A DNA stretch of 24,401 bases. Origin: a virus (taxonomy: Duplodnaviria; Heunggongvirae; Uroviricota; Caudoviricetes). Shown here one piece after another: positions 4,362 through 7,702 of this stretch. How positions within the stretch are numbered: position 1 is the stretch's first letter; each line of letters starts with the position of its first letter. The position numbers and the translations under genes are program-made. The stretch lies in IMG/VR virus record IMGVR_UViG_2526164690_000054; one strand, given 5' to 3'. The notes below the pieces were generated by a model. That model was not told the origin of the DNA. It did not search any database and saw only the letters and a list, made by a program, of their open reading frames with translations.

Positions 4362-5011
4362 GCCGCCATCTCCCTGACCAGTTTTTCCGCCTGCTGGCGA
4401 ACCTGCGCCAGAAAGGCCTCACCACATGCCTCAAGTTCATCGCGCCCGATGTAGCTGATTGCCGGTCCCTTCCAGGTCTTGTCGAAAACAGCAATAGCAC
4501 CAGCGAAGAAAGCGCCTGTCGGCACCTGCTTCTCGTCTTTCGGGATAAACCAGGCAGGCAGTTCAAAACCAATACGCCCTCGAATAAAAGCAATATGGTC
4601 CGCATCTTCCGGCCACCACACTTCGCTGGTGGCAGCTTTGATCAGGAAAACATAGCGCCCGCCTTTATCACGCATGGCACTGGCATGTTTCATGATGTAA
4701 CGCATGCCGGTGATGTATTGCCCCTCATGCTGACTGGCGCGGCTGTATGGGGGATTACCAAAGGCAGCCCCTTTAAGCTCCGCAAGACGTTCTGACCAGT
4801 CATGCGCCAGCGCGTTGTCTTCCGCCGTGTAATACGCAGCACATTTGGCGTTATCACCGTCAGTAAACAGATCCAGAACAAACGGGCCAAACAGGGTGTT
4901 CATTCCCCAGAAAATGTTGTCCGGCGTGCGCCACTGATCGCCCACTTCCTTCAGTTCATGGGCTGGTTTGTTCCGCAGTTCCACCAGCTCCTGGCAATAT
5001 TTATTACTCAT
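4358..5011 (-). CDS. phage-type DNA N6-adenine methyltransferase (Dam family)
   Basis: Contains the NPPY catalytic motif (FGNPPYS). The ATG at 5011 overlaps the PerC-like stop codon (TAATG coupling); the longest frame starts at GTG 5044. Confidence 0.8.
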   Translation of the reverse strand: MSNKYCQELVELRNKPAHELKEVGDQWRTPDNIFWGMNTLFGPFVLDLFTDGDNAKCAAYYTAEDNALAHDWSERLAELKGAAFGNPPYSRASQHEGQYITGMRYIMKHASAMRDKGGRYVFLIKAATSEVWWPEDADHIAFIRGRIGFELPAWFIPKDEKQVPTGAFFAGAIAVFDKTWKGPAISYIGRDELEACGEAFLAQVRQQAEKLVREMAA

Positions 5012-5220
5012 TAAGCCCCCACGTAATTCCCTGACAGATACCACTCATCACCCGATGCAGCGCGCTTGCTGCTTTTCCGTAAGCACCGCTCACGACGCGC
5101 CAGAAAATTGTTTCGTTCTGGCTGGGAGTGGCTTTCACGGAATGCCGACATCCACACGGTTGCAGCACGACGGTATAAGCCCCTGGACTCCAGTTCTTCA
5201 GCCTGGCGGGTCAGGCACAA
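5011..5220 (-). CDS. PerC/Pch-family transcriptional regulator
   Basis: 69 aa; AEELESRGLYRRAATVWMSAF matches the conserved core of PerC/Pch regulators (LEARGLWRRAA); TTG start in the track. Confidence 0.55.
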   Translation of the reverse strand: MCLTRQAEELESRGLYRRAATVWMSAFRESHSQPERNNFLARRERCLRKSSKRAASGDEWYLSGNYVGA

Positions 5221-5506
5221 AATTCACCCGGGGATCGTTAGTGCCGACATAGAAATTGCGCACAGGTCTGGTTTCTCGAACTGGTTGTGGTTCCGGCTCC
5301 TGCGCTCTCTCAGTCAGGCGCGGGAAATGTCTGCGTGTATCTCCTTCACAACGGTGAGCCACACGCCCACTCTGACGTAACTTGCTTGCAGACTGCAGAA
5401 CGCGCTGCCGTGAGTAACCTGTAAAAGCATCTGCAATGTCTCCGGAAGTACACCCCGGATGGGCTTCAATGAATTTCTGAACTTCATTCAAAAGACTCAT
5501 AATCAC
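5198..5506 (-). CDS. hypothetical protein (possible winged-helix)
   Basis: 102 aa; ATGA overlap with the upstream replication gene stop; no catalytic motif. Confidence 0.5.
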   Translation of the reverse strand: MIMSLLNEVQKFIEAHPGCTSGDIADAFTGYSRQRVLQSASKLRQSGRVAHRCEGDTRRHFPRLTERAQEPEPQPVRETRPVRNFYVGTNDPRVNFVPDPPG

Positions 5507-6321
5507 CCCCTGAATCCTGCCGGGATCTGGCTGTAGTCCACGTTGTCGTAACTGGCTTTGAAGTACGGGTCCTCACGTCCGGCTGCAGATACCGCAGGAA
5601 CTTCCCAGGATTCTTCGAAATGACGATCCGGACCAAAGAACGTGACAGCCTGTTTCACAAATTGTGTGCCGCTGTTACCCATCGCAGATACCCAGCCCGC
5701 GTAGCGTTTCACACCTTCCAGCATGGTTTCGGGGTTTACCCCCTCATTCAAACGGGCTTTCCAGGCTTTGAAGGCTGCAGATTTTGAATTGCCACCAGCA
5801 CGTTTGGGATATGCCAGCCATGCCTGCTCAAACTCCGGAGAGTATTCCGGTCGGTTTGAACGAACTCGCACAGACTCATCAGCAGATGCACCAACAGCTA
5901 TTGGTTCATTGACTGGTTCTTTGACTGGTTCAAAAGAGTGACTGGTTCTGGGTGAATCTCCTGCACTACCCCCTGGTGCAACTCCTGCACTACCTGGTGA
6001 ATTTGCTGCACCAGATAGTGAATTATTTGCACTACCCCCTAGTGAATCTCCTGCACCATCCAGATGAAGGAGATAGATATTACTTGAGTTACCTTTTTCA
6101 CCTTTCCGGGTGACTTTTTTTACCAGTCCGGAATCACAAAGAGCCGCAATATGATTCATCACAGAACGTTTGCTAATCTCGCACTGGTCAGCAATATGCT
6201 GGTAGCTGGGCCAGCACTCACCCTGATCGCTGGCATTATCAGCCAGCTTGATCAGAACCAGTTTTCGCAATGGATTACCCACTCGAATTTTCATCGCTTT
6301 AACCATCAGCTCCATACTCAT
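5503..6321 (-). CDS. phage replication initiation protein (N-terminal HTH, DnaT-like C-terminus)
   Basis: 272 aa; N-terminal HTH-like region (PSYQHIADQCEISKRSVMNHIAALCDSGLV), central Gly/Ser/Ala-rich low-complexity linker, C-terminal end DYSQIPAGFRG closely resembling the C-terminus of primosomal protein DnaT as I recall it. Confidence 0.7.
   Translation of the reverse strand: MSMELMVKAMKIRVGNPLRKLVLIKLADNASDQGECWPSYQHIADQCEISKRSVMNHIAALCDSGLVKKVTRKGEKGNSSNIYLLHLDGAGDSLGGSANNSLSGAANSPGSAGVAPGGSAGDSPRTSHSFEPVKEPVNEPIAVGASADESVRVRSNRPEYSPEFEQAWLAYPKRAGGNSKSAAFKAWKARLNEGVNPETMLEGVKRYAGWVSAMGNSGTQFVKQAVTFFGPDRHFEESWEVPAVSAAGREDPYFKASYDNVDYSQIPAGFRG
5905..6060. repeat. iteron-like direct repeat cluster inside the replication gene (candidate ori)
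   Basis: Repeated units seen directly: tgactggttc (5910, 5922), actggttct (5941), gtgaatctcctgcac (5952, 6042), gcactaccccct (5963, 6029), ctcctgcactacc (5958, 5982). Confidence 0.45.
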
Positions 6322-6542
6322 GCTGCACCTCCGAGATGCTTCATGTTTTTTCCGGAGCGAAAGGCTATAAGCGGCATACTGACGCGGTAATTACGGCCAA
6401 GCGGTTCACAAATCACCTTCTGACATTCACGGTCAACCAGGCTAACACGTAGAACATGCCCTGCAGGCGTGGTGTACCACTGACCGGGGCGAGGACAACG
6501 GAAAGTCTGATTGGTAAATCGTTTGAAAATATTCCGGATCAT
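6318..6542 (-). CDS. hypothetical small basic Cys-containing protein
   Basis: 74 aa; ATGA overlaps with both the upstream stop and the downstream start, so it sits in a coupled operon chain. Confidence 0.5.
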   Translation of the reverse strand: MIRNIFKRFTNQTFRCPRPGQWYTTPAGHVLRVSLVDRECQKVICEPLGRNYRVSMPLIAFRSGKNMKHLGGAA

Positions 6543-7702
6543 TTGCGCCCCCTTACCTCTGAAGAGTTCAGCGACGAATGAATAAGACGGGCAAGAAATG
6601 CCGCATCGTTAATTCGGTCATACAGACTTACAGCCAGCGATGATTCAGCTTTTTCCAGCATGGGATAAAGCTGCTGCAACCAGACCTGATGAATTGATGA
6701 AACGTAGGAATAGAGAACGCTGGCGTTATGTGCAACGTCGCTCGGTACAGAGGGCTTTGAAAGCTGTTTCTCCATCTGGTTAAAGGCATTGATGTATGCC
6801 TCTTTGAACTGGGCAGCACGTTTGCCAGTGAAGCCCATTGCCAGGAACGCGAAGCCGTCGCGGGTGATGTGGTAGCAAGGAAGTTTGCGAGTACCGCCGT
6901 TGGGCTGGTGTACCAAAATTGATGTCTCCGCAAAATTGCGGGCACAAAACTCTGGAGAACAATCCAAAATGCGGATCTTTTTCAGAACATCGTCATGACG
7001 TTTAGAGAAGAAGTCAGCAACAGCCAAAGAAGATGTAACAGCCTGACCATCAACGATGGCAATTTCAGGTTGAGAGAGGGTTGGGAGAGTAGTCATGGTG
7101 ACAGCCCCGGTAGTCAGTTTTTCAGAAAACTCACCACATGGGACGCCAATCACAGAGGTGGTGAGACGTACAGGGTTGGCGTTACCGGAGACTACCGAAC
7201 CCGGCCCGACCGAAGTCGGCCCTGTACGCCCCACCATAATTTGGGCGTAGCAATGCTCATGACACGAAAAAACCGCATGAGCGCGGTTATGCTCAGTAAT
7301 CAATTTCAGGACGCCAATCCCGGCACCCGCTTTATAAGGTGCCTGAACAGTGTAACGTCCCGGAATGGCAGAATCAATGTGCTGGTGGTCCTTCACACTC
7401 AACAAAATCACGCCTGAATTTCCACAAAGGACTAAAGCACTCATGCGGGTAGTCTTTGCGAAGATAGATAACACGCTGTGTTTCTGGCTCCCAACGAATA
7501 ACATGGACATAAAGCCCTCTTCCGTCACGAAACCAGCGGTTAAGTTCCTGCACAACTCGCCCCCCACAGTCAGGTAAAGTTCTCTGTGGTTACTTACAGC
7601 CAGGTGATTTGGTAATCTGCATTCATGCCGTAACAACAGGTGTTCAGCGACACTGACCACCAGCTGTTGCGACAAACGGTTATTTGCCGTTAAACTGTTC
7701 AT
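6539..7702 (-). CDS. Rha-domain phage regulatory protein with ~200-aa N-terminal extension
   Basis: Residues ~200-300 (VTSSLAVADFFSKRHDDVLKKIRIL...ITRDGFAFLAMGFTGKRAAQFKEAYINAFNQMEKQ) match the Rha domain pattern. Start 7702 is coupled (ATGA) to the CII-like stop; an alternative internal start at 7096 would give a Rha-only protein. Confidence 0.55.
   Translation of the reverse strand: MNSLTANNRLSQQLVVSVAEHLLLRHECRLPNHLAVSNHRELYLTVGGELCRNLTAGFVTEEGFMSMLFVGSQKHSVLSIFAKTTRMSALVLCGNSGVILLSVKDHQHIDSAIPGRYTVQAPYKAGAGIGVLKLITEHNRAHAVFSCHEHCYAQIMVGRTGPTSVGPGSVVSGNANPVRLTTSVIGVPCGEFSEKLTTGAVTMTTLPTLSQPEIAIVDGQAVTSSLAVADFFSKRHDDVLKKIRILDCSPEFCARNFAETSILVHQPNGGTRKLPCYHITRDGFAFLAMGFTGKRAAQFKEAYINAFNQMEKQLSKPSVPSDVAHNASVLYSYVSSIHQVWLQQLYPMLEKAESSLAVSLYDRINDAAFLARLIHSSLNSSEVRGRK

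Follow-up and report, generated by a model that had tools for sequence, protein, structure and literature searches.

The replication origin of bacteriophage lambda lies within the initiator gene O (Zahn and Blattner, as cited in PMC5509034), and in the course of initiation the O protein hands over to a second phage protein, P. In 34 of 314 lambdoid phages an O-type initiator is found alone, in a replication module that 'is not yet understood' (PMC12315714). Here we describe an initiator gene of this solo type, located at positions 5503–6321 of a 24,401-nucleotide stretch of DNA (the window) from the Caudoviricetes record IMGVR_UViG_2526164690_000054; by the definition used in that survey (PMC12315714), the window carries a solo-initiator module. 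We propose that the gene would contain its own origin and that its product ends in a peptide, shared with the Escherichia coli protein DnaT, that would recruit the host DnaB–DnaC complex.

As a sequence, the module is already known. Essentially the same gene and surroundings, at 97–99% DNA identity, are present in mEp460 (gp43), SfV (orf39), Stx2c-converting phages, phiSTEC1575-Stx2k, 1720a-02 and Lys8385Vzw, where the product is annotated variously as 'replication protein', 'replication protein O', 'primosomal protein I', 'DnaD domain' and 'HTH domain protein'. These modules differ materially from the window just in iteron copy number and in a frameshift in the next gene. The window as a whole is 99% identical to O111 and O26 Shiga toxin-producing E. 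coli genomes, and the gene lies in the early right operon of a lambdoid prophage on the E. coli chromosome. No mechanism for the replication proteins of the mEp460, SfV and Stx2c type was found in the searchable literature, and the module represents an unexplained variant of the lambdoid initiator.

The gene is a single open reading frame (ORF) whose 272-residue product matches the profile of PHROG 270, 'replication initiation protein', over essentially its full length (E 2.5e-88, residues 3–271), and on this basis we assign it as a phage replication initiator. The features of the gene to which we refer below are as follows.

5503–6321, minus strand: replication initiator coding sequence, 272 residues, stop codon at 5503–5505
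6058–6321, minus strand: N-terminal winged-helix domain, predicted to bind the origin, residues 1–88
5848–6057, minus strand: linker coding region with repeats, residues 89–158, predicted to be disordered
5952–6066, no strand assigned: iteron array of five 21–24-nucleotide units starting at 5952, 5976, 5997, 6018 and 6042 (spacing 24/21/21/24)
5902–5949, no strand assigned: four 12-nucleotide repeats, TGGTTCwTTGAC, equivalent to GAACCAGTCA on the coding strand (repeat family D2)
5572–5862, minus strand: C-terminal helical domain, residues 154–250, with the motifs YPKRAGGN and VKQAxTFFGPD, outside all Pfam families
5506–5538, minus strand: DnaT-type tail DYSQIPAGFRG, residues 262–272

This layout resembles that of lambda O in several respects. 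Both proteins have an N-terminal DNA-binding domain, a flexible linker and a C-terminal domain with a role, here predicted, in recruitment; in both genes the linker-coding DNA contains four to five iterons, each a partial dyad, beside a stretch that in the window gene is modestly AT-richer; and in the early right operon both genes are preceded by cII-like and cro-like ones. The components, however, are different. The lambda O families of Pfam, Phage_rep_O and Phg_2220_C, find no match in the window initiator, whose N-domain belongs instead to HTH_36 and whose C-domain is of another type, and the window has no gene for a P-type loader. The window protein, for its part, carries a DnaT-type tail.

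Four other systems are pertinent. Phage LLS, which forms plaques with an O homologue only, encodes a protein O with an HTH_36 domain, linker repeats and the C-terminus ...IPEGFRG. Its N-terminus matches a cluster (L236) with the combination HTH_36 plus Phg_2220_C, through which its domains are assigned; since the C-domain type so assigned differs from that of the window protein, it is the tail and not the C-domain that the two share. E. coli DnaT has the C-terminal peptide, and in the host, as in many tail-bearing phages, the gene that encodes it lies immediately upstream of that for a DnaC-type loader; the window protein lacks the DnaT N-domain and the DnaT DNA-binding domain (PF17948), whereas DnaT lacks a sequence-specific DNA-binding domain and iterons. 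The YdaU–YdaV pair of the Rac prophage in E. coli K-12 resembles the window system in its tail, its internal repeats and its place after ydaS and ydaT (cro/cII-like), but YdaU has a DUF1376 N-domain and a different C-domain, and is followed by the loader YdaV where the window has none. Finally, DopC combines HTH_36 with a 'DnaT C-terminal' motif detected by HHpred against 2ru8_A, is paired with the lambda P-like DopE and is reported to have no iterons (Brezellec et al. 2017, PMC5509034). The window protein likewise has HTH_36, together with its DnaT-type tail, but its gene contains iterons and has no P-like neighbour. In Microbulbifer, three loci (L117–L119) encode HTH_36 together with the C-domain type of the window beside a short ORF and a LexA-like repressor, and may correspond to the DopC–DopE pair; the tail there is ...WPQVDFPARVV and not IPxGFRG.

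The C-terminal tail

BLASTP comparison of the window protein with E. coli DnaT (the query sequence being identical to PDB 9zbt_D) revealed a sole alignment, SQIPAGFRG with SQIPPGFRG, in which eight of nine residues are identical (E 0.01 in this single comparison). A preliminary description of the locus, made from the DNA letters alone, had noted this likeness of the C-terminal ends, and the alignment bears it out. The description had gone on to suggest a DnaT-like C-terminal domain, and here only the tail peptide stands: PF17948 gives no match in the window protein even at E ≤ 10, hhalign returns a probability of 6–15% against DnaT, and BLASTP aligns nothing beyond the last nine residues, leaving the DnaT N-domain and linker unmatched.

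The shared peptide is conserved in DnaT: across 18 enterobacterial DnaT sequences R161, D162, S167, D170, I173, P174, G176, F177, R178 and G179 are invariant. Relatives of the window protein with C-domains no more than 60% identical to its own end in ...ISEPDxxIPPGFRG, to be compared with ...VSEPDSQIPPGFRG in DnaT, so that an extended tail of some 17 residues can be defined which recurs on many phage initiators. The C-terminus of Rac YdaU, ...QVNTVSLPDSAIPPGFRG, is almost the DnaT tail, and in relatives such as YdaU 13–15 of the 17 positions are identical to it. A search of viral contigs for DNA encoding PDxxIPxGFRG followed by a stop codon yielded 117 initiator ORFs, falling into 26 clusters at 70% identity. 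The N-domains of these carriers are assigned by Pfam to HTH_36, DUF1376 or Phage_rep_O, or are unassigned, and the tail is found on at least four types of C-domain, namely that of the window protein, PF17948, Phg_2220_C and the YdaU type. A genuine PF17948 domain (E 4e-18) is joined to the tail in the product of one locus (L180, 6958–7773, minus strand). We conclude from these sequence comparisons that the resemblance to DnaT is a portable C-terminal peptide motif, which is real and not a product of chance.

The proteins that join PF17948 to the tail (L180 and P0390–P0403) are initiator-like and come from Salmonella and Enterobacter phages and prophages; they share 62% identity with the C-domain and tail of DnaT, carry the NCBI name 'DnaT-like ssDNA-binding domain-containing protein' and are solo in the viral loci seen. 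Other tails recur on the C-domain of the window type: HSGFxxRDYGxTxxPxWA+, ...YGETEIPDWARD / LELPAWARD and, in Burkholderia, ...(E/D)(Y/F)IDV, with P0133, P0139, P0200, P0242, P0254, L107, L108 and L110 as their carriers. These may be peptides that select other loaders or helicases, or that serve in hosts without DnaT. A reading of QIPxGF as a beta-clamp-binding motif was rejected because the Gln varies among carriers (E, T, A, S). We found no earlier description of the tail as a motif shared by phage initiators in the literature searched, coverage of which was incomplete.

Domains and repeats of the initiator gene

The preliminary description had also pointed to an N-terminal helix–turn–helix. 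Residues 17–67 indeed match HTH_36 (E 2.8e-11), and AlphaFold2 predicts residues 1–88 to form a winged helix of four helices and a beta-hairpin wing, with a predicted local distance difference test score (pLDDT) of 80–93. Over residues 91–158 the pLDDT falls to 25–42. The C-domain that follows is predicted to be helical and occurs very widely (4482 clusters at 50% identity). Pfam covers it in none of 107 family members; the N-domains of these 107 proteins are HTH_36 (31), DUF1376 (13), Phage_rep_O (6) and others. Its best fold matches, weak but coherent, are the DnaD-like C-domains 2zc2 and 2i5u and SPP1 G39P. Comparison with predicted viral structures retrieves phage replication proteins, DUF1376 proteins, replisome organizers and DnaD (E 2e-9 to 1e-3), although neither Pfam DnaB_2 nor DnaD matches within the domain. 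There is thus a weak case for a DnaD-like or replisome organizer-like helical domain, unrelated to that of DnaT. The DDBH2 domains of DnaD and Bacillus subtilis DnaB and the replisome organizers of the SPP1 G38P/G39P type, which it resembles at low scores, belong to Gram-positive systems that use DnaI-type loaders.

Overlapping direct repeats had been placed at 5905–6060, a range that proved right to within a few bases: the two arrays span 5902–5949 and 5952–6066 and, as had been stated, encode a Gly/Ser/Ala-rich stretch of the linker (residues 89–124). Tandem Repeats Finder defines a 24-nucleotide period at 5952–6056 (4.6 copies, score 77), and a separate repeat finder gave the same units. 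Each is built around a 15-nucleotide core, GTGAATCTCCTGCAC on the plus strand, which reads as GTGCA-N5-TTCAC on the coding strand and is a partial dyad. With up to three mismatches allowed, the core occurs six times in the window against 0.62 expected, and six or more matches were obtained in none of 100 shuffled sequences. The array accounts for four of the six. The other two, at 5335–5349 on the plus strand (GTGTATCTCCTTCAC, two mismatches, in the downstream regulator gene) and at 7539–7553 on the plus strand (GTTAAGTTCCTGCAC, three mismatches, in the Rha/Ash gene), may be fortuitous or may serve as auxiliary binding sites. Of the second array, Tandem Repeats Finder reports the part at 5902–5932 (12-nucleotide period, score 55). 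The GC content dips modestly, to 0.40 at 5900–5949 and to 0.36–0.40 at 6050–6124, from about 0.52 in the flanks, and we infer that 5902–5949 is a candidate unwinding region.

Comparison of alleles suggests what is conserved here. Those with products of 242–302 residues differ only by whole repeat units of seven to eight residues within the linker, and at 80 near-identical viral loci the protein has 268–299 residues and the gene four to six cores. The identical core is present four to five times, at the same position in the gene, in alleles from Raoultella/Klebsiella, another E. coli lineage, Phytobacter and Kosakonia (L002, L005, L091 and L093), all of which share the N-domain and are 70–81% identical in protein. 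Family initiators with other N-domains lack this core and have linker repeats of their own, such as TGACCCnTC at 15-nucleotide spacing in one locus (L088); likewise the Rac ydaU linker contains four copies of AACAGATGTTCAA. Nucleotide identity between alleles peaks at 82–100% over nucleotides 262–397 of the gene, which comprise the iterons and the 12-mers (the latter 89–100% conserved), and falls to 51–76% in the flanks that encode folded domains. Because alleles differ unit by unit, because the core is linked to the N-domain and because the identity peak coincides with a linker predicted to be disordered, we take selection to act on the repeat DNA and not on the peptide. An origin inside the initiator gene, the classic lambdoid arrangement put forward in the preliminary description, is therefore plausible on comparative grounds. 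DnaA boxes were considered as part of this origin and rejected, there being none in the initiator gene; the 13 in the window, against 6.7 expected, all lie elsewhere.

Proposed recruitment of the host helicase

No ORF of the window matches profile hidden Markov models of phage DnaC-like loaders or of DnaB-like helicases, and the earlier statement that no P/DnaC-like or DnaB-like gene follows the initiator holds. In the closest alleles of the window gene with another tail (SGLGxMSDxFG...F or GFSEQDYGxxDCNW), the initiator gene is succeeded in 17 of 17 loci by genes for an IstB-like loader of 292 residues and for a helicase, DnaB-like and about 455 residues long. The two types of allele resemble each other as far as FFGPDRHFE-W and have nothing in common beyond this point, from which it follows that the tail moves as a unit with the genes downstream.

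Tail-bearing initiators are either solo or have a loader gene 0–7 nucleotides downstream. The loaders in question are of 245–250 residues and are 48–50% identical to E. coli DnaC over their full length, as against 31–33%, over the AAA+ part only, for the 292-residue loaders. A DnaB-like helicase is absent from the neighbourhood of all 117 viral ORFs with the tail, from eight further lineages and from 81 loci of the window type; overall, none of some 200 tail-bearing loci has one, and the loader is DnaC-orthologous or the host's own. Of the 67 families matched in a Pfam scan of 97 non-redundant ORFs downstream of tail carriers, the 25 listed include no DnaB family. When clusters and not loci are counted, a helicase accompanies 0 of 21 with the tail and 5 of 16 others (Fisher p = 0.01). 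Large ORFs downstream of solo initiators were considered as hidden helicases and rejected, since scanned singly they are DNA methylases, a subtilase and AAA proteins. At one locus (L242, 4661–8051, plus strand) the tail-bearing initiator is followed by an AAA ATPase of 384 residues and a subtilase-family protein of 754 residues, which looks like a defence-type cassette inserted in the early operon.

The simple rule that a DnaT tail denotes a solo initiator is refuted by P0150/L088 and L100–L106, which carry both the tail and a DnaC-like loader. The neighbourhoods point instead to a revised rule, that the tail goes with the lack of a phage helicase and with a loader that is either DnaC-orthologous or that of the host. 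YdaV, encoded directly after Rac YdaU (L124, 2120–3730), is 50% identical to DnaC, and the host dnaT and dnaC genes (L245, 1239–2518), 2 nucleotides apart, are laid out like the phage initiator–loader pairs. The common layout of dnaT–dnaC and ydaU–ydaV suggests that the host genes were domesticated jointly from a phage initiator–loader pair.

We consider an intragenic origin combined with recruitment of the host DnaB–DnaC by the DnaT-type tail to be the best explanation of these observations, with a probability of roughly 55%. By analogy with lambda O and its origin, the five iterons at 5952–6066 would serve as binding sites of the winged-helix N-domain, and the bound initiator would oligomerise and help to open the AT-richer 12-mer region at 5902–5949. 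The flexible tail would then dock DnaB–DnaC, most likely through the DnaC-type loader, and the host helicase would be loaded at the opened origin much as DnaT is thought to deliver DnaB–DnaC at the restart primosome. A phage loader would be unnecessary because the tail would bring the host complex. The preliminary description had proposed that host primosome components in general may be recruited; the covariation of gene neighbourhoods leads us to favour DnaB–DnaC as the probable partner. Its interpretation is to this extent partly supported, an origin within the gene and recruitment from the host both being plausible.

Several points weigh against this explanation. The physical contact between the tail and a host protein is something we infer from sequence patterns. 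Most carriers have an upstream 'EPD' part in the tail that is missing from the window's own. The association is with the absence of a phage helicase; whether DnaB or DnaC is the partner cannot be told from it, and a motif directed at PriA or PriB would also fit. The lineages are related and exchange modules, such that locus counts overstate their independence, and at the level of clusters the significance is just p = 0.01. Lambda-type phages have neither a helicase nor this tail, which makes the tail one solution among several. At the origin, the candidate unwinding region is just mildly AT-rich (GC 0.40), and the lack of a DnaA box in the gene means that no help from DnaA is indicated. Lastly, the tail is undiscussed in a 2026 paper on the preprimosome, whose authors suggest the DnaT N-domain as a possible contact for DnaB or DnaC (PMC13377028).

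The tail might instead mimic DnaT toward PriA, PriB or a further binding partner of the SSB C-terminal tail, in which case the opened origin would be treated as an abandoned fork and DnaB loaded by the PriA pathway. PriA binds the C-terminal DDDIPF peptide of SSB, which the tail, with its acidic residues followed by IPxGF, loosely resembles. The terminal Phe carboxylate of SSB is critical, however, and in the window protein the Phe is followed by Arg-Gly. The contact of PriA with the SSB tail is mentioned in PMC4129139, and PriA and PriB are the partners of DnaT (PMC13377028); in the cryo-electron microscopy structures, though, DnaT contacts PriA by its helical C-domain and PriB by its linker (PMC13377028), and the window protein has neither. 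That RecBCD helps the solo-initiator phage LLS suggests replication linked to recombination or restart (PMC12315714), but a contact with PriA does not predict the covariation of the tail with a DnaC-orthologous loader and a missing phage helicase, and we regard this route as unlikely. Somewhat less likely still is a tail with no specific partner, which would aid single-stranded DNA binding or self-assembly of DnaT- or DnaD-like domains while the helicase arrives by other means (the C-domain core, transcription and R-loops, or recombination-dependent replication). The C-terminal region of DnaT is described as a conserved single-stranded DNA-binding region with many aromatic and basic residues (PMC4129139), Phe and Arg are present in the tail, and the C-domain core, with its 4482 clusters, is far commoner than the tail. 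Yet the DNA-binding unit that was crystallised, DnaT 84–153, excludes the tail (PMC4132743), and the acidic EPD segment is unexpected in a DNA-binding peptide. The occurrence of the tail on at least four unrelated C-domains, and its exchange with the downstream module at a sharp boundary, fit partner selection better.

A different doubt concerns the repeats, which could be mere slippage-prone coding repeats of a flexible Gly/Ser/Ala linker, with the true origin elsewhere. The unit spacings are all multiples of three, copy number varies among alleles as slippage predicts, and the origin role of the repeats is itself deduced from comparison. Disordered linkers normally diverge fastest, however, and here the DNA identity of diverged alleles is at its highest in the linker; moreover, the core is tied to the N-domain type and contains a partial dyad, and an origin in linker-coding DNA is the established lambdoid arrangement, as in lambda. 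We therefore judge slippage alone to be highly improbable.

The proposal that the tail recruits DnaB–DnaC can be carried further, at some cost in certainty. The invariant DnaT peptide ...EPDxxIPxGFRG would be the missing docking motif for DnaB–DnaC; among enterobacterial phage initiators, 20 or more lineages would have captured it or share it, borne by no fewer than four unrelated C-domains, so as to load the host helicase. It would make a phage loader dispensable in solo phages, while the host dnaT–dnaC would be descended from a pair of the YdaU–YdaV type. Taken as one joint claim, we hold this tentatively, at rather less than even odds.

Neighbouring genes and implications

Two genes adjoin the initiator.

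6318–6542, minus strand: 74-residue ORF, its stop codon overlapping the initiator start (ATGA); PHROG 1153 (E 1.3e-45), of unknown function
5011–5506, minus strand: winged-helix (MarR-like)–PerC regulator downstream of the initiator; Pfam MarR_2 and PerC, with PHROG 1324 spanning both halves

The order in the direction of transcription is a cro/YdaS-like gene, a cII (CP76)-like gene, a Rha/Ash regulator, the 74-residue ORF and the initiator, followed by the winged-helix–PerC regulator, Dam, a LexA-like DNA-binding protein and RusA; a cI-like repressor is encoded on the opposite strand. The 74-residue gene also lies directly upstream of the initiator in three other loci (L005–L007). In other E. 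coli alleles it is tied to the type of N-domain whatever the tail, and may thus assist the origin or the N-domain as an accessory factor. The next gene downstream had been described as encoding a 102-residue protein. This ORF is present, but it is the front half of a gene that encodes 162 residues in mEp460 and is split in the window into ORFs of 102 and 69 residues. Alignment to mEp460 traces the split to an insertion of one nucleotide near 5224, an extra A (GGGTGAATTTT compared with GGGTGATTTT), which could reflect a pseudogene, a sequencing error or a real variant. In either form the gene is, from its domain matches, not a loader.

Structures of the preprimosome published in 2026 leave open how PriA–PriB–DnaT recruits DnaB–DnaC (PMC13377028). 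The tail is a candidate recruitment element both for solo phages and for DnaT, so that two open questions could be tested with one peptide. It may explain how phages without a helicase or loader of their own replicate, among them the Stx2c-converting phages of pathogenic E. coli, which carry the same solo module, and it offers a simple sequence marker with which the dependence of temperate phages on host DnaB and DnaC might be predicted.

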